DNA of 64,000 bases from Patescibacteria group bacterium (GTDB taxonomy: Bacteria > Patescibacteriota > Patescibacteriia > UBA9934 > GWF2-40-263). Every line of letters starts with the position of its first letter. Positions within the stretch are counted from its first letter, which is position 1. Shown one piece after another: positions 1,755-49,072 of the stretch. The position numbers were made by a program, and so were the translations under genes. The DNA is taken from NCBI GenBank assembly GCA_041661745.1, contig JBAZTR010000005.1, forward strand, positions 3,283 to 67,282, written 5' to 3'. The notes under the pieces are model-generated. The model saw only the letters and a program-made list of their open reading frames with translations, ran no database searches and was not told the origin of the DNA.

Positions 1755-3160
1755 TCTGTCACACTTTGGTAAAACTTCCCTGCCCTAAACAAACAAGTTT
1801 CATCAAAAGGCTTGGCCATTAACTGCAAACCAATTGGTAAGCCTTCGTCAAAGCCACAAGGCAAGGAAAGAGCCGGAATTCCCGCTAAATTAGCGGAAAC
1901 TGTGTATATATCCGAAAGATACATGGCTAAAGGATCGTTAAACTTATCCCCAATGTCCCAAGCCACGGTCGGCGAGGTTGGTGTGATGATAACATCAACG
2001 TGTTTAAAAGCTTCCTCAAAATCACGGCGAATCAATTCACGCACACGTAAGGCTTTTTTGTAGTAAGCATCAGAGTAACCTTTTGAGAGAGCAAAACTTC
2101 CTAACATAATGCGGCGCTTGGTTTCCGCACCAAAACCTTCGCCCCGGGCTTTTAGATAAGTTGTTAAAAGATTTTCTCCGTCAACGGCGTGACCAAAACG
2201 AATCCCGTCCATACGTGCCAAGTTTGAACTGACTTCACATGGCATAACGATGTAATAAGCAGCAATGGCGTACTCGGTGTGCGGCAAAGAAATTTCTTTA
2301 ACCTCGGCCCCGTTATTTCGTAAAACTTCGATTGCTTCGAGAACCGCTTTTTTAACTTCAACATCCATGCCTTTAACAAAATATTCTTTTGGAACACCGA
2401 CTCGCAGACCCTTGATGTCGTTCGGAATTAATTCGGGAATAACGACGTCTGTTTCAACGGCCGTGGCGTCCTTATCATCATTGCCGGCAATCACGGAAAA
2501 AACTTCGGCCACGTCTTCAACAGTGTGAGCACAGACACCAATTTGATCTAGCGAAGAGCCCAAAGCTATGGCCCCGTAACGACTAACGCGGCCGTAGGTG
2601 GGCTTTAAGCCCACCACGCCGCATAATGCGGCGGGCTGCCGGACCGAGCCGCCCGTATCGGTTCCCAGGGCGGCCGGCACAAAGCCGGCAGCCACGGCCG
2701 CGATTGATCCGCCAGACGAGCCGCCAGGCGTTTTTTTAATATTCCAAGGATTTTTGGTGGGAAAAAATGCTGAATTTTCAGTCGATGAACCCATGGCAAA
2801 TTCGTCCATGTTGGTTTCGCCGATAATTATGGCGCCAGCCTCACGTAATCTTTTAATAACCGTGGCGTCATAAACCGCTTCATATTCTTGGAGCATTTTA
2901 GAACCGGCCGTGGCTTTACGACCAGCTACAAGAATATTATTTTTAACAGCAATGGGAATGCCGGCCAAGCGTCCTTTTTTATTTTTTATATCATGAGCTT
3001 CGGCTAACGCCTCGTCATTAGCCACATGCAAAAAAGCATTGATCTCGTGATCGTGTTTTTTTATTCGTTCAAGTGAATTTTCTATAACCGCTTCGGCTGA
3101 AACTTTTTTATCAGCCAAAAGTTTTTTTATTTCACTAATCGTTAAAAAAGATGTGTCCAT
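1727..3160 (-). CDS. gatA: Glu-tRNA(Gln)/Asp-tRNA(Asn) amidotransferase subunit A
   Basis: 477 aa with the amidase signature GGSSGGSIAAVAAG. The conserved N-terminus (TISEIKKLL...) sits next to gatC. Confidence 0.9.
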   Translation of the reverse strand: MDTSFLTISEIKKLLADKKVSAEAVIENSLERIKKHDHEINAFLHVANDEALAEAHDIKNKKGRLAGIPIAVKNNILVAGRKATAGSKMLQEYEAVYDATVIKRLREAGAIIIGETNMDEFAMGSSTENSAFFPTKNPWNIKKTPGGSSGGSIAAVAAGFVPAALGTDTGGSVRQPAALCGVVGLKPTYGRVSRYGAIALGSSLDQIGVCAHTVEDVAEVFSVIAGNDDKDATAVETDVVIPELIPNDIKGLRVGVPKEYFVKGMDVEVKKAVLEAIEVLRNNGAEVKEISLPHTEYAIAAYYIVMPCEVSSNLARMDGIRFGHAVDGENLLTTYLKARGEGFGAETKRRIMLGSFALSKGYSDAYYKKALRVRELIRRDFEEAFKHVDVIITPTSPTVAWDIGDKFNDPLAMYLSDIYTVSANLAGIPALSLPCGFDEGLPIGLQLMAKPFDETCLFRAGKFYQSVTDWHKKQPKM

Positions 3161-3165
3161 ATTTT

Positions 3166-3471
3166 CTATTCTGTTCGGCTCTCAAAAACCGCGGGCACTT
3201 CAAGCAACGCACCAGACTTTCGCGGAAAAGAATTAATGGCCGCGTCGCGTTCGTCCGGGTCAACCGCCTGCGCTTCATCGACACGCCAAACGTTATTAGA
3301 AATCGCTCCAGTCGCCATTTCTGGAACATTGGTTGTATCGACTTCGGCCAGTTTATCAACATAACCGATAATTGACTCAAAATAACCGCGATAGGCTTCA
3401 ACCTCGTCATTAGCGATCTCCAAACGCGAAAGTTTGGCTATATGTTTAATGTCATCTGTGGAAAACTCCAT
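3166..3471 (-). CDS. gatC: Glu-tRNA(Gln) amidotransferase subunit C
   Basis: 101-aa protein with the GatC N-terminal region (IKHIAKLSRLEI...). It lies directly upstream of gatA. Confidence 0.8.
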   Translation of the reverse strand: MEFSTDDIKHIAKLSRLEIANDEVEAYRGYFESIIGYVDKLAEVDTTNVPEMATGAISNNVWRVDEAQAVDPDERDAAINSFPRKSGALLEVPAVFESRTE

Positions 3472-3472
3472 A

Positions 3473-6053
<2,581 letters not shown>

Positions 6054-6064
6054 ATTTCATTGAT

Positions 6065-6442
6065 TTAGTGGGCGAGTAATAAATTTATTTGCTCGGCCAG
6101 TTGATGTGGGGTAATTTGGCTTTTAAGAAAATATTTGCTAGCGCCGTTTTCCAAAGCTTCGGTAATTTGTTTTCGGTCGCTTAAGCCGGTTAAAACAATA
6201 ATCGGAATATTAACCAAACTTTCGACTGAACGCAGACCTTTAATCCAACGTAAGCCGGACTGTTCTTCCAAAGCGATATCAACAATTATTATATCAGGAA
6301 CGGCCAGTTTAATCTTTTTATCAGCTTCGGAAAAATTTTTAACCGCCTTGGTTTGAAATTTATGAACGGTAAAATGCCGGGCGCAAATATCAGCAAAAAA
6401 GGCATCGTCTTCAATCATTAAAACAACTGGTTTCCGACGCAT
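6065..6442 (-). CDS. Response regulator receiver-domain protein (CheY-like, single domain)
   Basis: 125 aa. The acidic pocket (IEDD...D) and the beta5 region (IIVLTG) are typical of a REC domain. Confidence 0.65.
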   Translation of the reverse strand: MRRKPVVLMIEDDAFFADICARHFTVHKFQTKAVKNFSEADKKIKLAVPDIIIVDIALEEQSGLRWIKGLRSVESLVNIPIIVLTGLSDRKQITEALENGASKYFLKSQITPHQLAEQINLLLAH

Positions 6443-7635: not shown

Positions 7636-7662
7636 AAGAATAAAAAAGGCCGCTTGGAAGCG
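7636..7662 (-). terminator. Rho-independent terminator of the island-1 gene
   Basis: On the minus strand, a GCCGCTTCCAAGCGGC hairpin is followed by TTTTTTATTCTTTTT. Confidence 0.55.
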
Positions 7663-7691
7663 GCAGGAGGTGACGAAGTCGAGGTAGCCGA

Positions 7692-8222
7692 CTATTCGGG
7701 CAGGTCGACCAGGGCGAAGCCGCCGTAGTCGTGGTAGTAAACCGTGTGGGGAGATTTGTTCTCCCAAACGTTGACGAGATCGTGGCCACGAAAATCCGTG
7801 AAGGTTTTCTCGAGGTCCCACAGATCGTCGTAGGCGTTCGTGTAGCTCATGCCGTCGCCCTCCCTAAAAAATCCCGGCCCACGACCACCGCGGAATTCCG
7901 TTGCTGCCGCCAGGGCGCGACGCAAGAAGTTGAGCACACCGGGCACATTCGACCGCCACCATCCCTGGTACCACATGAGCCAGATCGGCTTTCCGCGGTA
8001 GAAGATGACGGTGATGCCGAAGGAGTACCGGATCGAGTACTTGTTGGGCTTTCCGTAGGAGAGCCATGTGTCGATGTACCGGAAGTCGCCCTCACCGAAG
8101 GTCATCATCTTGGCCTTGGGAAAGAACGGAAGCCTCTTCGACTCCTTGCCAGAAGCGTAGGTTTCGTTCTTGGCCATCATGAAGAAGGCCATGGTCTCGG
8201 CAACAGTCGGCAGAGCAGACAT
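7692..8222 (-). CDS. Hypothetical protein, high-GC island 1 (176 aa)
   Basis: Local GC is far above the flanks. The minus-frame protein has balanced composition, whereas the plus-frame ORFs are R/G/P-rich antisense artifacts. It has its own promoter and terminator. I could not reconcile the start codon with the track coordinate; it may be off by 1 nt. Confidence 0.45.
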   Translation of the reverse strand: MSALPTVAETMAFFMMAKNETYASGKESKRLPFFPKAKMMTFGEGDFRYIDTWLSYGKPNKYSIRYSFGITVIFYRGKPIWLMWYQGWWRSNVPGVLNFLRRALAAATEFRGGRGPGFFREGDGMSYTNAYDDLWDLEKTFTDFRGHDLVNVWENKSPHTVYYHDYGGFALVDLPE

Positions 8223-8259
8223 TTTCCTATCCTCCTGAAAGGAACGGGTTACGGCGAGA

Positions 8260-8288
8260 CCTTAACACGAAACAAAAAAGGCGGCAAA
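8260..8288 (-). promoter_or_regulatory. Sigma70-type promoter of island 1 (TTGCCG-N17-TAAGGT)
   Basis: On the minus strand the sequence reads TTGCCG + 17 nt + TAAGGT, about 37 nt upstream of the start. Confidence 0.35.
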
Positions 8289-8341
8289 CCAAAACCCGCG
8301 CCTTTTTTTTGACGCGGGATTGGCTGGTGTCGGCTTTTTTA

Positions 8342-8418
8342 TGGTGGACTCGACGGGACTTGAACCCGTAACTCTAGGTACCAACCCTAAGCGAGGTTAT
8401 CATTACCTCCACGAGCCC
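8342..8418 (-). tRNA. tRNA, probable Pro(UGG), with an atypical anticodon arm
   Basis: The minus-strand sequence is GGGCTCGTGGAGGTAATGATAACCTCGCTTAGGGTTGGTACCTAGAGTTACGGGTTCAAGTCCCGTCGAGTCCACCA. It has a 7-bp acceptor stem, a D arm, a T arm (GGGTTCAAGTCCC) and an encoded CCA. The best anticodon-arm fold is TTAGG/CCTAG with loop GTTGGTA. That fold needs 2 nt between the D and anticodon stems and puts T at position 37. Confidence 0.55.
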
Positions 8419-8490
8419 ATAAACCGACGTTTTGATAAAACAAAACAGCTCCCAAAAAGACACGTTTAAATGTCTAAAGGGGAGCTGTTT

Positions 8491-8538
8491 AGTTGGTACC
8501 TAGAGTTAAGGTTCTTAATTTAGAACCTCGCTTAGATG
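8491..8538 (+). repeat. Inverted partial copy of the adjacent tRNA (anticodon and D-arm segments)
   Basis: GGTACCTAGAGTT (8496-8508) and CCTCGCTTAG (8526-8535) are exact reverse complements of internal segments of the tRNA at 8342-8418. A perfect hairpin GGTTCT-TAATTT-AGAACC lies between them. Confidence 0.5.
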
Positions 8539-8634
8539 TTTTTATTTCATCACAAAATTAATTTTTTGTCAACCCTTCGACCAAGCTCAGGGTTGACCCC
8601 GAGCCTGTCGAGAGGGTCAATGATGTTTTGTGGA

Positions 8635-9708
8635 TTATTTTTCATCTAAATCAAATTCCTCAATCATCTGTTTTTGTTTCTTAGACAGATTCTTTGGAGT
8701 TGCTACTTTTACCAAAACTAATTGATCACCACGGCCGCGACGATTAGGCACACCTCTCCCCCGCAGGCGAAATTCGGTATGTGACTGTGTACCAGCGGGA
8801 ATTTTAAGTTCAACTTTACCTTCAACTGTTTCCACCTCAACCGTACCGCCCAAAGTAGCTGTGACAAAATTAATTGTCGTCTCAGAATGAATGTCGTATC
8901 CATCACGAATAAAGCGATCGTCGTCGCGCACCCGCAAACGAATAAACAAATCGCCCGACTGGCCGCCTTTAATTGCTTCACCTTGACCAGACAAACGTAA
9001 AGTATTGCCGTCCTCCACACCAGCCGGAATATCAACGGTTAAAGTTTTTTTATTTTTTTGTAAACCGGAACCACGACATTCACTACAGGTTTTTTCCGGC
9101 GTCTCCCCCGCCCCATCGCAAGCTGAACAATTTACTTTACTCTGAATTGCCCCGAGAATAGTGCGTTGGACACGAACCTGATAACCAGCCCCGTTGCATT
9201 CGCCGCATTTTTTCATTTTGCTGCCCGGTTCAGCGCCAATTCCGCCACAACGAGGGCAAGCTTCGGTTTTATTAAAACTAACATCTTTGGAAGCACCAAA
9301 AACACTTTCTTCAAAAGTTAAAGTTAAATCAACTTGTAAATCACGTCCGCGGTTACTTCGTTTGCGCCCGCCACCACCAAAACCAAAAGCACTGCCAAAC
9401 AAATCGCCCAAGTCGCCAATGTCGCCAAAATCAAAATTAACGCCACCTTGATTGAAACCGCCAAAACCGCCACCACCAGGAAAACCTTGCGCACCGTCAA
9501 AACCGGCCGCGCCAAACTGGTCGTAGCGCTGGCGCTTTTCCGGATCACCAAGAACTTGGTAGGCTTCGTTGATTTCCTTAAACTTGGCTTCATCACCACC
9601 GACTTTATCCGGGTGATGTTGGTGAGCCAAGGTCCGAAAAGCTTTTTTAATTTCTTCGGCTGAAGCATTTTTCTCCACCCCGAGAACTTTGTAATAATCT
9701 TTGGACAT
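8635..9708 (-). CDS. dnaJ: Chaperone DnaJ
   Basis: J domain with HPD (YYKVLGV...HHPDK), a G/F-rich region and four CxxCxGxG zinc-finger repeats. Confidence 0.9.
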
Positions 9709-29882: not shown

Positions 29883-31319
29883 ATGCAAACCTCGACTGAT
29901 CAAAAAATCTGGGAAGAAGAACAGCTAATTATTGCTGCAGAAAAACAAAAAACCCCCGAACTTTTTGTAACTTCAAAAAAAGAGCCAGGACAACTTTTTA
30001 CGCGTATCGGTATTCTTGATTATCCAACTTCCTTGCCCAAAGGTTATATAAAATACTCGCCGCTTGATTTTATTGTCGAAGAAATATTACCCGACGACAC
30101 AGTTGTTGATGTAGACAGTTTTAAAACTGACTCAAAGGCGATTATGTCCGGCCAAGGCACAATTTATGCCGATATTGTTAAAGTTGGCATTTCCACGCTT
30201 GATGCGGTTAATCGCATTGCCGAGGCTTTGAACCTTGATCCAAAACAAATCGGCTACGCCGGAATTAAAGATGCTGTTGCCCTAACTTCGCAAACTGTCA
30301 GTTTCCGTGGCGGTGTTACGGTTGAAGAAATTAAAAAACTTTCAGTTCAAGGAGTTATTATAAAAAACGTGGTGGAAGGAAAAGGGGCCGTCCAAATCGG
30401 CGCGCTTAAGGGAAACCATTTTACTTTATTCGTTAGAACGGAAAAACAGATTGACGAAGTCGCTTTTCAAAAAAATATCTCTCTTATCAACGAAAAAGGC
30501 ATTCCCAATTACTTTGGCCCGCAACGTTTTGGCAGTCCGCGCTTTTTGTCGCACTTATTCGGCATGCATTTGCTGCGTGGTGAGCCAAAAGAAGTGGTAA
30601 AAACTTATTTCTTTAAAACCAGTGAATTTGAATATCCATTCGTCACCAATTTACGAAACGAAGCCGCCAAACACTGGGGCGACTGGCCAGCGGTGGAGAA
30701 AATCTTTTCCACACTTCCCTACACCTTTCGTCATGAATTGAAGATATTGGAAACTTTAAAAGAACCGGGCAAACAAGATTCGTTTGTCGAAGCCTTATCA
30801 ACTATCGATCGCCAAGTTGATTTGTGGGCCCGCGCTTACGCCAGTTTTTTAAACAATCTTATTTTTTCCGAAGCCGAAACTGCCAGTCTTCCCTTGCCCG
30901 AGACAACTATTCAACTTTTAACGGAAAATCCCGAAGCACAAAATTTATATGGTAAATGGCTGGCAACACACGGCACCAAAAAATTCGTGGAAAATTTAAA
31001 ACAATTTCGTTTTACCAATTTTATTCACTTGGGCAATGCGGCTATTCCATCGCGCGTTAGGCCACATGTGCATAACTATAAAATTGTCCCCGAAGGCGTG
31101 GCTATTTGTTTTGATTTGCCCAAAGGGGCCTATGCCACCACGGTTTTAATGTTTCTATTCGACACCGTTACCGGCCAGCCTTTTCCTGAATGGATGAGCC
31201 GGACTGATTTTGATTCAAAAGAATTATTAAGTCTTGGTTCAATTGCAGAAATTAAAAAAGCCCTCGGGCCTTCTGTTGAACAGTTGATGTCCAAAAAACA
31301 GGAAGTTGAGGGGGATTAA
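29883..31319 (+). CDS. truD: tRNA pseudouridine(13) synthase TruD/Pus7 family (long form)
   Basis: The TruD signature YAGIKDAVALTSQ (GxKD..A.T.Q) is present. At 478 aa it resembles archaeal/eukaryotic Pus7-like forms rather than the ~350-aa bacterial TruD. Confidence 0.7.
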   Translation: MQTSTDQKIWEEEQLIIAAEKQKTPELFVTSKKEPGQLFTRIGILDYPTSLPKGYIKYSPLDFIVEEILPDDTVVDVDSFKTDSKAIMSGQGTIYADIVKVGISTLDAVNRIAEALNLDPKQIGYAGIKDAVALTSQTVSFRGGVTVEEIKKLSVQGVIIKNVVEGKGAVQIGALKGNHFTLFVRTEKQIDEVAFQKNISLINEKGIPNYFGPQRFGSPRFLSHLFGMHLLRGEPKEVVKTYFFKTSEFEYPFVTNLRNEAAKHWGDWPAVEKIFSTLPYTFRHELKILETLKEPGKQDSFVEALSTIDRQVDLWARAYASFLNNLIFSEAETASLPLPETTIQLLTENPEAQNLYGKWLATHGTKKFVENLKQFRFTNFIHLGNAAIPSRVRPHVHNYKIVPEGVAICFDLPKGAYATTVLMFLFDTVTGQPFPEWMSRTDFDSKELLSLGSIAEIKKALGPSVEQLMSKKQEVEGD

Positions 31320-31326
31320 TTGGTTG

Positions 31327-31360
31327 GGGACTAAGGGACTGGGATACTGAGGGACTGAGT
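31327..31360. repeat. Short tandem repeat, (GGGACTxx) x4
   Basis: GGGACTAAGGGACTGGGATACTGAGGGACTGAG lies immediately after the truD stop. Confidence 0.5.
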
Positions 31361-31380
31361 TTTTGAAAACTTCGTAGATA

Positions 31381-31428
31381 CGCGAACGCCGTGTAGACTG
31401 GTTCCACCCAAGAGGGGTGGGTCTACAC
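31381..31428. terminator. Large bidirectional hairpin between convergent truD and the island-4 gene
   Basis: CGCCGTGTAGAC-tggttccacccaagaggggtgg-GTCTACACGGCG: a 12-bp stem whose loop holds a nested CCACCC/GGGTGG hairpin. Confidence 0.55.
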
Positions 31429-31459
31429 GGCGTGAGTGCGGCTGCGTCTGCTAGTGTGA

Positions 31460-32041
31460 CTAGCGGGGGACGCACCGCATGTGGGCCTCGGTGTCCAGGA
31501 CGCGGAGGTCCCGGATCTCCCCGACCTCGTCGTCGTTGAGGGCGTGGGCCGGATTCACCGTCACACTGCCGTCCGGGTTCCGGAAGCAGTGGACGTGCCC
31601 GAAGGTCCGCCCGAGGATCTCGGTGAGCTTGGCCTGGAGGGCCGGGGACATGTCCAGGGCGGGCTTTCCTGCCTCGAGGACGACGACCAGGAAGTACATC
31701 CGGTCGCCCTCCTTCTGGAACATGGTCAGCCCGGTCACGGACCATCCGAACACCCTGGTCACGTCCGCGAGGACGCAGCGCAGGGAGACGGACTGGCGTC
31801 CCTCGGCCTTCCAACCGAACACCGGCGTGCCGGAGTCGGCCTGGCGGTTGCCGACGGCATCGGTGCGATCGCCGCGGAGGCCGTCGCGGCCGGCGGCACT
31901 GGCGCGCTCGATGTTGCGCTCGGTCAGCTCGGTCTGGCGCTGGGTGGAGCGCACGGTGCAGACGACTCCGAGTCCCTTGAGCATCGCGGCCGCCCGGTCG
32001 TTGATGCGGGGCTTGACGATGAACCTGACGATCTGCGACAT
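31460..32041 (-). CDS. Hypothetical protein, high-GC island 4 (~193 aa)
   Basis: The ATG at 32041-32039 is preceded by GGAGGTTCAA. The protein MSQIVRFIVKPRINDRAAAMLKGLGV... has two VFGW repeats. The overlapping 295-aa (-) and 188/217-aa (+) ORFs are R/G/P-rich antisense artifacts. Confidence 0.45.
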   Translation of the reverse strand: MSQIVRFIVKPRINDRAAAMLKGLGVVCTVRSTQRQTELTERNIERASAAGRDGLRGDRTDAVGNRQADSGTPVFGWKAEGRQSVSLRCVLADVTRVFGWSVTGLTMFQKEGDRMYFLVVVLEAGKPALDMSPALQAKLTEILGRTFGHVHCFRNPDGSVTVNPAHALNDDEVGEIRDLRVLDTEAHMRCVPR

Positions 32042-32133
32042 TTGAACCTCCTGGCGTTGAGCCAGAGTGGTGGGGGGGGGCTGGGTGGAACGAACACTCA
32101 ATCGGACCCTTTCGGATCAGAATCAAGCGTATA

Positions 32134-32162
32134 AATATATCATAAAAACACCCTTATGTCAA
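32134..32162 (-). promoter_or_regulatory. Sigma70-type promoter of island 4 (TTGACA-N17-TATATT)
   Basis: On the minus strand, TTGACA lies at 32162-32157 and TATATT at 32139-32134 with a 17-nt spacer. The -35 hexamer sits inside the AACACCCTT-GACAT-AAGGGTGTT hairpin that terminates the upstream methyltransferase gene. Confidence 0.45.
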
Positions 32163-32691: not shown

Positions 32692-32763
32692 AGTCGCTAT
32701 ATTATATTCGAATTAATGATTATTGCCAAAACAAAAACACGCGAATCGTTTTCGTGTGTTTTT

Positions 32764-32838
32764 GGTCGGGCTGGCGGGACTTGAACCCACGGCCTCTACG
32801 TCCCGAACGTAGCGCTCTACCTACTGAGCTACAGCCCG
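32764..32838 (-). tRNA. tRNA-Pro (anticodon CGG)
   Basis: The minus-strand sequence is CGGGCTGTAGCTCAGTAGGTAGAGCGCTACGTTCGGGACGTAGAGGCCGTGGGTTCAAGTCCCGCCAGCCCGACCA. It folds into a canonical cloverleaf with a C1-G72 pair, anticodon loop TTCGGGA and an encoded CCA. Confidence 0.85.
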
Positions 32839-47209: not shown

Positions 47210-47283
47210 TCTCTTCCTTGCCATTCAGGGTCTGGCTGGGATTTGTTCTCTTAACAACGACCCTATACAACACAGGTGAATAA

Positions 47284-48132
47284 ATGCGAGGCAACGCCGC
47301 GGCCCTCAAGAAACTCGTTCCCACCGTCTTCGCCGACAGCAAGGTCCGGTTCGACGAGAACACCGGCGAGCCCATCCTGGTCGTCAGGATCGTGAAGAAG
47401 GTCACCACCCAGCTCGCGAGGGAGATCAGGGTTCTGGTCATCACGACCGAGCCCGAACTCAACACCAAGGGCATGGCCGAGAAGCTCAACTCCTTCGCCT
47501 TCGACGACGAGAAGATCTACGAGCTCCACTTCGACCGGGACGGCCTCAAGACCTGCCTGGTCGATGACGTGGTCGTCGAGGCCACCAAGAACCCGGGGCT
47601 CCGGGAATTCCTCTCGCACTACTTCCACAACTGCTGCACCGCGGTCAGCGACCTCGACAAGACGCTGGGACGCCTCCCCTCGGTGGAGCAGCTCACCGGG
47701 GACATCGAACGCGAAGTCGAGCCGCGACTCGTGGAAGCCTTCACCAAGGGCAACCCGGTCGCCTTCGTCACCGGCCCGACCAACATCGTGCCGATCTGCC
47801 CCTGCAAGGCAACGATGCTCGACCCCTTGTTCCTCGACGTCCTCGGCATGGTCGGCGGCGAGGAGCTCAAGACCCTCAACAAGAAGCGAGCCGAGCTCGA
47901 GGCGATGGCCCGGGACAAGGCGACTCTCGTTACCATCGTCCCTGTGGAGTGCCGCAACATCTTCTTCAACCTCGCCGCCACGATCATCGTCGCAGCGATC
48001 GAGGCCCTGCTCCCGGACATCGTCCAGGCCGAGCAGGACAAGATCGCGGTCAACGCGGGGGCGGCCATCGCGGCCCTCCACGACGCACGGCGCGCGACCG
48101 CCGAGGCCAGCACCGACATGACCGAGGCCTAG
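47284..48132 (+). CDS. Hypothetical protein, high-GC island 5 paralog A (282 aa; HNCC and PICPCK Cys motifs)
   Basis: The ATG is preceded by AGGTGAATAA. Composition is balanced and third-codon positions are almost all G/C. It is homologous over most of its length to the next gene. The antisense ORFs (47263-48174 minus, 47564-48121 plus) are artifacts. Confidence 0.5.
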   Translation: MRGNAAALKKLVPTVFADSKVRFDENTGEPILVVRIVKKVTTQLAREIRVLVITTEPELNTKGMAEKLNSFAFDDEKIYELHFDRDGLKTCLVDDVVVEATKNPGLREFLSHYFHNCCTAVSDLDKTLGRLPSVEQLTGDIEREVEPRLVEAFTKGNPVAFVTGPTNIVPICPCKATMLDPLFLDVLGMVGGEELKTLNKKRAELEAMARDKATLVTIVPVECRNIFFNLAATIIVAAIEALLPDIVQAEQDKIAVNAGAAIAALHDARRATAEASTDMTEA

Positions 48133-48233
48133 CCCAGGCCCACGTTCCCGCTTCTTCAGAAGAAGCCACGGCAACTCTTGCCGCGCGCTCTATGGAGAAG
48201 TGGTTTTTTATTTTAGAAAACAACAACGCGGCG

Positions 48234-48262
48234 TTGACAAGGCCGGGGAAATATTATAATCT
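48234..48262 (+). promoter_or_regulatory. Sigma70-type promoter of island-5 gene B (TTGACA-N17-TAATCT)
   Basis: TTGACA lies at 48234-48239 and TAATCT at 48257-48262 with a 17-nt spacer. The leader that follows is homologous to the gene A leader (GCCATAAGGGGTCTGGCGTGGGTTGTTCC versus GCCATTCAGGGTCTGGCTGGGATTTGTTC). Confidence 0.5.
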
Positions 48263-48340
48263 TTTCCTCCTGCCATAAGGGGTCTGGCGTGGGTTGTTCC
48301 TAAAAATTTGACTGACCCCAACCTTTGTTCGGAGGTTCCC

Positions 48341-49072
48341 GTGCTAACTTCCCTAGCGTCGCTCGTTGCTCTCGTCCCGGAGGTCTTCACCAACCTCGGG
48401 ATCACCTTCGATCCCGAGACCAACGCGCCTCTCCTGGTCGTCAAGATCGTGAAGCGGGACGGTGTCCTGACTCTCACGACCGAACCCGAATTCGACACCA
48501 AGGGCATGACCGAGAAGCTCGACCCCACATCCTTCGAGGAGGGAGTCGTCTACGAACTCCAGTTCGGCCCGAAAGAAATGGGAATCTACTCAGTCGACGG
48601 CGTGGTCACCAACTCCAGTATCAACCCCGGTCTCCAAGAACTGGGCGTGCACCTCTACTACCACGGCTGTTGCGCGGCCGGCGACCTCGACAAAACACTG
48701 AGATGTCTCCCGTCGGTTGAGAATCTCACCGAGAGTCTCGGCGTCAGCGTCGAGAGATACCTCATGAAGGCCCTCAACGAGAACGACACGGATGCCTTCG
48801 TCACCGGACCGATCGGCAACTGGGCGATCTTCGAGAAGGAGGCAGTGGACGGGGATATGGAGGCTATCACCATCCCCATCCCACTGGAGCGCGAGAACAT
48901 GTTCTACAGCCTCGCAGTCACGATCCTCGTCGCGGTGTTCGAAGCTTTGTTTCCAGACATCGTCCGAGCGCAGCAGATGGCCATCATAGACAGGACCGAG
49001 AGGATCCTCGTGGCCGCGCGGAAGAAGCTCTGCCCGCATCCGCCGGACGACACACCGTACCGCGTCAGATGA
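48341..49072 (+). CDS. Hypothetical protein, high-GC island 5 paralog B (~243 aa; HGCC Cys motif)
   Basis: A GTG at 48341 is preceded by GGAGG 5 nt upstream, and from there the product aligns with the paralog A N-terminus (LVPEVF/LVPTVF ... LLVVKIVK/ILVVRIVK ... GDLDKTLRCLPSVENLT/SDLDKTLGRLPSVEQLT). The track ORF starts at a TTG at 48308. Confidence 0.5.
   Translation: MLTSLASLVALVPEVFTNLGITFDPETNAPLLVVKIVKRDGVLTLTTEPEFDTKGMTEKLDPTSFEEGVVYELQFGPKEMGIYSVDGVVTNSSINPGLQELGVHLYYHGCCAAGDLDKTLRCLPSVENLTESLGVSVERYLMKALNENDTDAFVTGPIGNWAIFEKEAVDGDMEAITIPIPLERENMFYSLAVTILVAVFEALFPDIVRAQQMAIIDRTERILVAARKKLCPHPPDDTPYRVR

Follow-up and report, generated by a model that had tools for sequence, protein, structure and literature searches.

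The stretch of 64,000 nucleotides considered here, which we call the window, comes from contig JBAZTR010000005.1 of a Patescibacteria group bacterium and carries, between dnaJ and pilM, a sequence that resembles a tRNA and is preceded by inverted copies of two of its own internal segments. What kind of element is arranged in this way? An original prediction, made from the DNA letters and a list of open reading frames (ORFs), had offered two answers, namely a partial tRNA duplication left by the integration of an adjacent GC-rich island or, alternatively, a small structured RNA encoded next to the tRNA. The comparisons described below show, at the level of sequence, an independent, conserved, multi-copy RNA gene in which the 5' domain and the interior of a 3' tRNA-Ala-like domain are complementary and co-evolve. 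The reading that we favor is that positions 8285-8572 (minus strand) probably constitute one self-contained non-coding RNA gene, ~250 nt in length, specifying an alanine-type tRNA mimic with a built-in antisense clamp or switch.

The tRNA-like domain and its complementary leader

All features of the element lie on the minus strand. The tRNA-like sequence with its encoded CCA was recognized, as had been predicted, both by ARAGORN and by the Rfam tRNA model (run with Infernal); ARAGORN called 8342-8418 a 77-nt tRNA for proline, UGG, with the anticodon at position 36 instead of 34. The Rfam score of 37.3 bits exceeded the gathering threshold (29), as is expected for the cloverleaf of a decoding tRNA, compared with 70.8 bits for the canonical tRNA-Pro(CGG) at 32763-32838 of the window. 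The Infernal alignment requires a bulged U inside the anticodon stem, which is equivalent to the 2-nt junction that the original prediction had needed in order to fold this arm, and the loop reads G-U-UGG-U-A, so that position 32 is G and position 37 is U, the latter again as predicted (T in the DNA). The thermodynamic fold favors an 8-bp rod with a UGGU tetraloop over the anticodon loop, and the D loop has GA in place of GG. The sequence is indeed as odd a tRNA as it had been taken to be. Its acceptor stem, GGGCUCG/CGAGUCC, is of the alanine type (G1-C72, G3·U70, A73 and encoded CCA), unlike that of the genuine tRNA-Pro of the window, which has C1:G72, and exactly this acceptor stem is found in two phage tRNA-Ala(GGC) genes.

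The inverted copies of two internal tRNA segments, described in the original prediction as standing in permuted order around a GGTTCT/AGAACC hairpin, were confirmed by their coordinates: 8366-8385 matches 8492-8511 (20 nt, 95%) and 8387-8398 matches 8524-8535 (12 nt, 100%), in permuted order around a hairpin (hp1) at 8509-8528. While the 17-nt exact core of the inverted copy has a BLAST E-value of ~0.001 when the window is taken alone, the decisive evidence against chance is the recurrence of this architecture, in other sequences, at ~18 related loci. We designate the two segments of the tRNA-like domain X and Y, and their complements in the leader X' and Y' (Table 1). X' matches, as reverse complement, the final two bases of the D loop, the 3' strand of the D stem, position 26 and the 5' strand of the anticodon stem. 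Given that X and Y are adjacent (0-1 nt apart) and that X' and Y' keep the same 5'-to-3' order in the leader, the X:X' and Y:Y' helices cross. The nested hairpin with an inner AGACA/TGTCT stem that had been noted between the inverted copies and the tRNA also proved to be real; it spans 8439-8494 and has arms at 8439-8462 and 8471-8494 (hp2). Neither X' nor Y' has a second target within the 64-kb window. The suggestion that 8420-8540 might encode a small structured RNA was essentially right, and fell short in its extent: leader and tRNA-like sequence make up one gene, the two halves of which pair with each other.

Members and covariation of the RNA family

About 18 members of the family were recovered from Patescibacteria metagenomes (loci are cited by number where they have to be told apart). 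Two of them, L074 and L076, have the tRNA-like 5' half of the window copy (GGGCTCGTGGAGGTAGTGGT) but completely different anticodon arms, and the antisense segments of their leaders differ to match. When metagenomes were scanned once with 20 nt taken from the tRNA-like 5' half (GGGCTCGTGGAGGTARTGRT), 22 loci came back. The architecture is present in 17 of these, which comprise 12 distinct members not seen before and further copies of L074, L076 and L084; the other five were chance matches in GC-rich coding DNA. An nhmmer search yielded a divergent third copy (L100b) on a contig already known for two, which places three copies on the 45-kb contig Ga0265296_1000726, and one new member (L103) came from a protein-database search for ORFs miscalled across the element (four proteins in all).

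From 5' to 3', the architecture common to the members comprises a -35 hexamer, a 17-nt spacer, a -10 hexamer, ~6-9 nt, X', hp1, Y', hp2, a linker, the tRNA-like domain, a trailer and a terminator. The linker between hp2 and the tRNA-like domain is short, and its 3' part pairs with the trailer. Across the family the apex of hp2 ranges from ~25 to ~120 nt in length.

The duplexes formed by cognate segments have mean energies of -20.8 kcal/mol (X':X) and -27.4 kcal/mol (Y':Y), against -13.9 and -16.9 kcal/mol, respectively, for non-cognate combinations. In a 16-sequence alignment that was registered on invariant anchors, with hp1, hp2 and the linker omitted and T-loop insertions removed, X:X' was 94.8% paired, with both sides changed in 8 of the 12 pairs, and Y:Y' was 87.5% paired (core ~97%, the misses lying at the two ends), with both sides changed in 10 of 16. 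None of 500 shuffles matched the observed value on any of five measures, and sliding the partner by 1-3 columns reduced pairing to 36-47%. An unguided MAFFT alignment of nine full-length members, submitted to RNAalifold, independently gave a 14-bp Y':Y helix together with the D and T hairpins, with compensatory changes. Moreover, G·U pairs are recurrent in both X:X' and Y:Y'; because these are valid on the sense strand only, and would be A·C mismatches on the opposite strand, what is constrained is the sense RNA, not the DNA. Two other helices are conserved likewise: hp1 folds in 16/16 members tested although its stem sequences differ, and the leader-trailer helix is present and covarying in 17/17 members tested, its sequence being unrelated in L084, L086-L090 and L100b.

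Some of these segments have more than one conserved partner. The GAGG at the 3' end of X' has two possible partners, the 3' strand of hp1 (AACCUU) and the 3' strand of the D stem (AACCUC). For the D-stem 3' strand, in turn, the partner may be X' or the D-stem 5' strand (GAGG). All four segments have changed together in L103 (GAAG, CUUU, GAAG, CUUC), L093 has a G·U pair in the D stem where X' has A-U, and L100b has a D stem of GGGG/CCCC, its X' retaining one mismatch. Because all four segments co-vary, at least two mutually exclusive pairings are conserved, which points to a switch, or else to a compact junction that keeps hp1 and the D stem and divides the anticodon arm alone between X' and Y'. 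The nested minimum-free-energy structure contains leader-tRNA pairs in 11 of 12 members and lies 6-20 kcal/mol below the acceptor-forced structure in all 12, and the X:X' and Y:Y' helices are much more stable than the cloverleaf anticodon stem that they replace. The similar lengths of X:X' (12 bp) and Y:Y' (13-16 bp) would suit two struts lying side by side between a proximal and a distal junction.

Within the tRNA-like domain, the same 16 sequences are 100% paired in the acceptor stem, 100% in the D stem and 98.8% in the T stem, with covariation. The cloverleaf anticodon stem, at 79.7%, is the weakest helix; nearly every member has one mismatch in its five base pairs, where a decoding tRNA would be fully paired. 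The family loop follows the pattern (G/U/A)-U-U-R-N-Y-A, with C or U at position 37 in 16/16 aligned members, and does not have the combination of pyrimidine 32, U33 and purine 37 found in decoding tRNAs. Nor is the anticodon conserved, as even the orthologues at the dnaJ-pilM locus differ (UGG in the window, UGU for Thr in L074, UGA for Ser in L076); across the family ARAGORN assigned Thr, Leu, Ala, Ser, Asp or Pro, or made no call, and the tRNA-like domains of L083 and L087 fall below the Rfam tRNA threshold. The acceptor end does not agree with these anticodons, an alanine set (G3·U70, A73) being joined to non-Ala anticodons. G3·U70 is present in 16/16 aligned sequences, and is kept in L100b despite changes in three other acceptor pairs; A73 is present in all members except one; and 14 of the 16 aligned members encode CCA (L098 and L100 do not). 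Genuine tRNA genes that rely on CCA addition may likewise have no encoded CCA. Because D-loop base 19 and T-loop base 56 covary (A19 with U56 in L082, L083, L093 and L100b, G19 with C56 in nine members, G19 with U56 in two), the elbow is real. The half comprising acceptor, T arm and elbow thus appears to act like tRNA-Ala, and the anticodon half like the partner of the leader.

The family has its own conserved promoter, from which transcription in the window would start near 8536-8538. Among the -35 sequences of the members are the variants TTGATA, GTGACA, TTGACG and TTGACC, and a generic promoter scan left the -10-like hexamer of the window uncalled, its position 2 being G. A motif TWATCCACA on the same strand (no more than one mismatch from TTATCCACA) begins 16-18 nt ahead of the -35 hexamer in 9 of 17 members and 26-28 nt upstream of it in two further members, while in the window it has been moved 65 nt off by an inserted palindromic repeat. 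Besides the window, the loci with this motif at the family promoter are L074, L076, L087-L093, L096, L100 and L101. The composite TCCACA-N6-12-TTGAYA occurs 12 times in the 104 loci collected, and 11 of these occurrences are at family promoters, that of the divergent L100b included; because the composite is nearly exclusive to these promoters, a dedicated transcription-factor input is suggested, possibly from DnaA or a similar factor.

Table 1. Features of the RNA gene and its neighbor, in the order in which they are read on the minus strand
Feature	Position	Strand	Remarks
DnaA-box-like motif TAATCCACA	8629..8637	-	upstream of promoter; shifted by inserted palindromic repeat
-35 hexamer TTGACA	8567..8572	-	TTGACA-type in 18/18 members at the same distance
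-10-like hexamer TGAAAT	8544..8549	-	TGRAAT in most members
X' leader segment CUAAGCGAGGUU	8524..8535	-	complementary to X; 12 pairs
hp1 hairpin GGUUCU/AGAACC	8509..8528	-	between X' and Y'; strands overlap the X' 3' end and the Y' 5' end
Y' leader segment	8492..8511	-	complementary to Y
hp2 long hairpin CAGCUCCC...GGGAGCUG, inner AGACA/UGUCU	8439..8494	-	apical length varies in the family
Leader strand GUCGGUUU of leader-trailer helix	8421..8428	-	closes base of tRNA-like domain
tRNA-like domain	8342..8418	-	acceptor GGGCUCG/CGAGUCC with G3·U70, A73, CCA; D arm; weak anticodon arm; T arm
X AACCUCGCUUAG	8387..8398	-	D-loop end, D-stem 3' strand, position 26, anticodon-stem 5' strand
Y GUUGGUACCUAGAGUUACGG	8366..8385	-	anticodon loop, anticodon-stem 3' strand, variable region, first T-stem bases
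Trailer strand AAAGCCGAC of leader-trailer helix	8329..8337	-	pairs with leader strand
Intrinsic terminator CCCGCG...CGCGGG + UUUUGGUUUG	8285..8318	-	equivalents (hairpin and U-tract) after the element in relatives
DUF5680 gene (GC island 1)	7692..8222	-	neighbor of the RNA gene, not part of it

The genes next to the element differ by locus and include alaS, cca, lepA, dnaG, a P-type ATPase gene and dnaJ/pilM, among others; because they vary in this way, the RNA has no fixed protein partner. The L096 member lies directly upstream of a short alaS (596 aa; 2886-4676) and the L103 member directly downstream of the gene for a CCA-adding enzyme (2010-3467), and adjacency to alaS and cca in two of ~14 independent loci is within chance.

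Searches of viral contigs with the exact anticodon-arm pattern and the 20-mer, and of phage genomes with blastn, found no family member, and an acceptor-only pattern in the viral contigs matched phage tRNA-Ala(GGC) genes alone. Two phage contigs (L072 and L073, from IMG/VR) have an array of 14 tRNA genes and a transfer-messenger RNA (tmRNA) with the tag AEPLSMYAMA, and share the tRNA-Ala(GGC) acceptor. Rfam 15, searched at the gathering threshold and at E-values up to 10, returned only tRNA and a sub-threshold tmRNA match, and holds no such family. The other Rfam matches (SdsR, a CRISPR direct repeat and snoRNAs) were at chance level. Full-text literature searches gave no description of such an RNA, and a paper on tRNA introns in Patescibacteria (PMC13011429) does not cover an RNA of this kind.

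Several members have acquired extra sequence. A structured insertion of 53 nt, comprising one or more hairpins with GGATCC at the center, occupies the same position of the T loop in L082, L083 and L088; it is near-identical in the first two, has another sequence in L088, and is too short for a group I intron. The hp2 apex of L086, L087, L088, L096, L100 and L101 is enlarged by long AT-rich palindromes of TTCCAA/TTGGAA units, framed by GAGTTGGAAA...TTTCCAAC, that look like an expansion segment or a miniature inverted-repeat transposable element (MITE) in a tolerant loop. The palindromic repeat of the window promoter is GC-rich, ends in GGTCGAAGGG and is inserted directly upstream of the -35 hexamer (8576-8620); related palindromic repeats, which look like a small mobile repeat, stand just upstream of -35 in L082 (in tandem) and L083. 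The copy in L092 (1842-2200) is broken after AACCTCACT by an insertion with a GIY-YIG-type ORF (WFVYIIECIDGSYYTG...), and the expected 3' part (GTCTGACACCGAGG...) is not seen in the remaining 600 nt; a disrupted copy and an intron-like insertion are both possible.

Proposed function and competing explanations

We propose that the transcript would mature as tRNAs do, with the leader-trailer stalk as processing stem, cleavage by RNase P at G8418, 3' trimming and CCA addition. The acceptor determinants (G3·U70, A73, CCA and the elbow pair) predict charging with alanine by alanyl-tRNA synthetase (AlaRS), for the identity of which only the G3·U70 acceptor helix is required. The leader would then be a clamp or switch, antisense to the anticodon arm, that opens this arm and bars the alanine-accepting mimic from normal decoding, an arrangement that recalls tmRNA, in whose tRNA-like domain the anticodon arm gives way to other RNA. 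Candidates for the downstream role are a non-ribosomal alanine donor, a regulator directed at the ribosome or at AlaRS, and a sensor.

A bolder proposal, which we put forward tentatively and with less than even confidence, is that the family represents an unrecognized bacterial RNA class, a promoter-to-terminator gene with a DnaA-box-like operator whose product is an alanine-accepting mimic with its own clamp, toggling between a locked state, in which the anticodon arm is split into two leader helices, and the cloverleaf, and working as a switchable alanine carrier or sensor outside decoding. Possible roles for such a toggling RNA are cell-wall or lipid alanylation, tagless ribosome rescue, or replication-coupled control of AlaRS or of the ribosome, and in the most extreme version it could be a caged mistranslating tRNA. 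There is a fair chance that the family merits the status of a class of its own rather than that of a variant tRNA mimic. Patescibacteria make up a large share of bacterial diversity, and almost nothing is known of their non-coding RNAs; members of the family are now annotated, if at all, as tRNAs with arbitrary anticodons, and can therefore corrupt inferences about tRNA sets and genetic codes. The element would be a natural case of a tRNA mimic whose anticodon arm is dismantled by a co-transcribed leader in a permuted, double-helical manner with conserved alternatives, and so bears on RNA folding, on recognition by AlaRS and RNase P, and on aminoacyl-tRNA-like molecules outside translation in reduced genomes.

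Not all of the data sit comfortably with an alanine-type mimic held by a clamp. The window copy, alone in the family, has an A19/C56 mismatch at the elbow, and a 53-nt hairpin within the T loop of three members fits a canonical elbow poorly. X:X', Y:Y' and the acceptor stem are pseudoknotted with respect to one another and may be alternative states, and the fully conserved and covarying D stem implies that the cloverleaf, or part of it, is also under selection. Two further points lie in the way the data were gathered: most members were found by an exact 20-mer in the 5' half of the tRNA-like sequence, so that conservation there, where only L100b and L103 vary, is partly by construction, and the 16-sequence alignment was registered by hand with the structure in mind.

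Of the systems to which the element can be compared, tmRNA (SsrA) is similar in having an alanine-type acceptor with G3·U70 and CCA, a T arm, an elbow of D and T loops, and other helices in place of the anticodon arm. However, the tRNA-like part of the present element is contiguous at the 3' end instead of being built from the two ends of the RNA, and the helices that replace the anticodon arm come from a co-transcribed 5' leader in permuted order. The alignment to the tmRNA model (RF00023) skipped 290 model positions and reached 28.3 bits where the threshold is 47, and ARAGORN called no tmRNA in the window or the family loci. No conserved tag reading frame was found, the window leader having stops in all frames and hp2, judged by eye, no shared ORF, and the three copies on contig Ga0265296_1000726 are not in keeping with one tmRNA gene per genome. 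A tmRNA, two-piece and permuted forms included, was rejected on topology, the missing tag frame, copy number and model score.

The likeness to bacterial tRNA-Ala comprises G1-C72, G2-C71, G3·U70, C4-G69, A73 and a T arm of the GGGUUCRAxUCCC type, and the acceptors of a tRNA-Ala from the candidate phyla radiation (CPR; L035) and of phage tRNA-Ala are the same as that of the element or nearly so. In contrast to tRNA-Ala, the element has a variable and mostly non-Ala anticodon, a pyrimidine at 37, a mismatched anticodon stem, an unusual D arm (GAGG/CCUC) and a leader that masks its interior. Bacterial YrlA, the tRNA-like structures of plant viruses and the mascRNA of MALAT1 are tRNA-shaped modules in larger RNAs that are recognized by tRNA-processing enzymes, the last being located at the 3' end of MALAT1 and released by RNase P; none of them is known to have a leader antisense in cis to the two strands of the anticodon arm. 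YrlA has a closed acceptor end and its termini at the position of the anticodon stem, whereas the element has an open acceptor end with CCA and its termini elsewhere, and the Rfam models of all these tRNA-mimic families gave no match at E-values up to 10.

RNA segments complementary to the anticodon-arm region of their own tRNA do occur in archaea, in the box C/D intron of pre-tRNA-Trp and in the leaders and trailers of Nanoarchaeum split tRNAs. Those, however, serve as introns or as handles for trans-splicing and bear C/D boxes or bulge-helix-bulge motifs, while here a 5' leader in a bacterium shows no such motifs and its antisense order is permuted. The element also resembles the platform of an attenuator or riboswitch, in that the X' 3' end, the hp1 3' strand and both D-stem strands pair in two exclusive ways and all co-vary, but it differs in having its own terminator, varying neighbors and no evident regulated downstream gene. 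On account of the permuted double complementarity we also considered IS110 bridge RNAs, H/ACA or box C/D guides, the exon- and intron-binding sites (EBS/IBS) of group II introns, and T-boxes, and set them aside on general reasoning, there being no transposase or partner nearby, the wrong strand logic or order, and none of the defining motifs.

It could also be considered that the leader is the functional part, a small RNA with antisense segments X' and Y' directed at another RNA that the tRNA-like interior mimics, the tRNA-like domain being a 3' processing and stability module that masks them. The tRNA-like domain does stand at the 3' end behind the leader-trailer stalk, where an RNase P cut would set the 3' end of the leader as in MALAT1/mascRNA, X' begins almost at the inferred 5' end, and pairing is conserved while the paired sequence varies freely. 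We nevertheless regard this as unlikely, given the lack of a second X' or Y' target in the window, the drift of the paired sequences between orthologues, which is unexpected for a fixed external target, and the invariant G3·U70, near-invariant A73 and covarying 19:56 pair, which argue for selection beyond recognition by RNase P. The calls by ARAGORN and Rfam, the 7-nt loop with U33, the intact D stem, T stem, elbow and acceptor, and the conservation of two mutually exclusive conformations would fit a decoding tRNA restrained by its leader, be it a genuine tRNA-Pro(UGG) controlled by a regulatory leader or a toxic tRNA that is charged with alanine and mistranslates, its cis-antisense leader acting like an antitoxin. 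An anticodon that varies even at the orthologous locus makes a decoding role quite improbable, as do the pyrimidine at position 37 in every member, the anticodon-stem mismatch in nearly every member, an acceptor of alanine type where the genuine tRNA-Pro has C1:G72, and the far greater stability of the leader-bound state.

Two other explanations take the arrangement as a product of DNA movement. It is very unlikely that the family is a tRNA-derived mobile repeat of the short interspersed element (SINE) or MITE kind spreading in CPR genomes, with the complementarity as a by-product of copying: paralogues on the same contig are strongly diverged with compensatory changes instead of near-identical, each copy retains its promoter, operator-like box and terminator, terminal repeats and target duplications are lacking, and there was no match in the phage or viral collections, even if several copies occur per genome (at least three on one 45-kb contig), contexts vary, close relatives differ in presence or absence, and small repeats and GIY-YIG genes are inserted nearby. 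We give almost no credence to the integration scar of the original prediction, that is, a tRNA duplication left by site-specific insertion of the DUF5680 island. Directly 3' of the tRNA-like gene lies the DUF5680 gene, which is foreign in composition (GC 0.574, and 0.79 at third codon positions, where dnaJ has 0.36), a 15-nt imperfect direct repeat (7639-7653, 8271-8285) flanks the island, and the cargo of the dnaJ-pilM spacer varies among relatives. But the repeat consists of terminator halves, the island holds no recombinase or integrase gene, and the copies are inverted, internal, permuted and upstream, not directly repeated tRNA 3' ends at the far island border; they also covary with G·U pairs, which implies selection at the RNA level. 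Comparison with relatives, which the original prediction had itself proposed, found the element with its inverted segments and no island in L074 and L076, and DUF5680 with no tRNA in L002; because element and island thus occur independently of each other, a partial tRNA duplication caused by the island does not hold.

The dnaJ-pilM locus and its cargo

The minus-strand gene order at the locus is dnaK, a HAD hydrolase gene, dnaJ (8635-9708), the RNA element, the DUF5680 gene, pilM, a response regulator gene and ligA. The DnaJ of the window is 70% identical to that of Candidatus Uhrbacteria UBA12432, and the window is closest to Candidatus Uhrbacteria, within the Patescibacteria (CPR); in ENA its contig is k141_61162 of ERZ27249449. 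GC island 1 (7636-8290) consists of one DUF5680 ORF of 176 aa, whose product is 40% identical to the L002 copy, the gene of which is GC-rich as well, and gave no match in the PADLOC, PHROGs and NCBIfam libraries.

A genome scan with DnaJ for the orthologous locus gave 70 CPR loci. The dnaJ-pilM spacer is empty in L078-L080 (DnaJ 77% identical), holds a 279-aa ORF with weak Cas3-HD-like matches in L077 (DnaJ 79%), holds the tRNA-like element alone in L074 and L076 (DnaJ 81%), and in L002, the closest GTDB relative (DnaJ 70%), has a GIY-YIG gene and a DUF5680 gene. The spacer is a hotspot with varying cargo among close relatives, and seems to take in foreign genes; given the foreign composition of the DUF5680 gene, the earlier impression that this intergenic region takes up foreign DNA was reasonable. 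Where distant relatives have a tRNA after dnaJ, it is an ordinary one (Lys, Glu, Val, Leu or Ala) and unrelated to the element.

The L002 spacer also has two copies of a ~70-nt repeat (6125-6200 and 6330-6400). Two more GC-rich islands are present in the window, at 31239-32134 (GC up to 0.70) and 47263-49072 (up to 0.64), both with long ORFs on both strands that have no Pfam match, and the former lies ~650 nt from the canonical tRNA-Pro(CGG).

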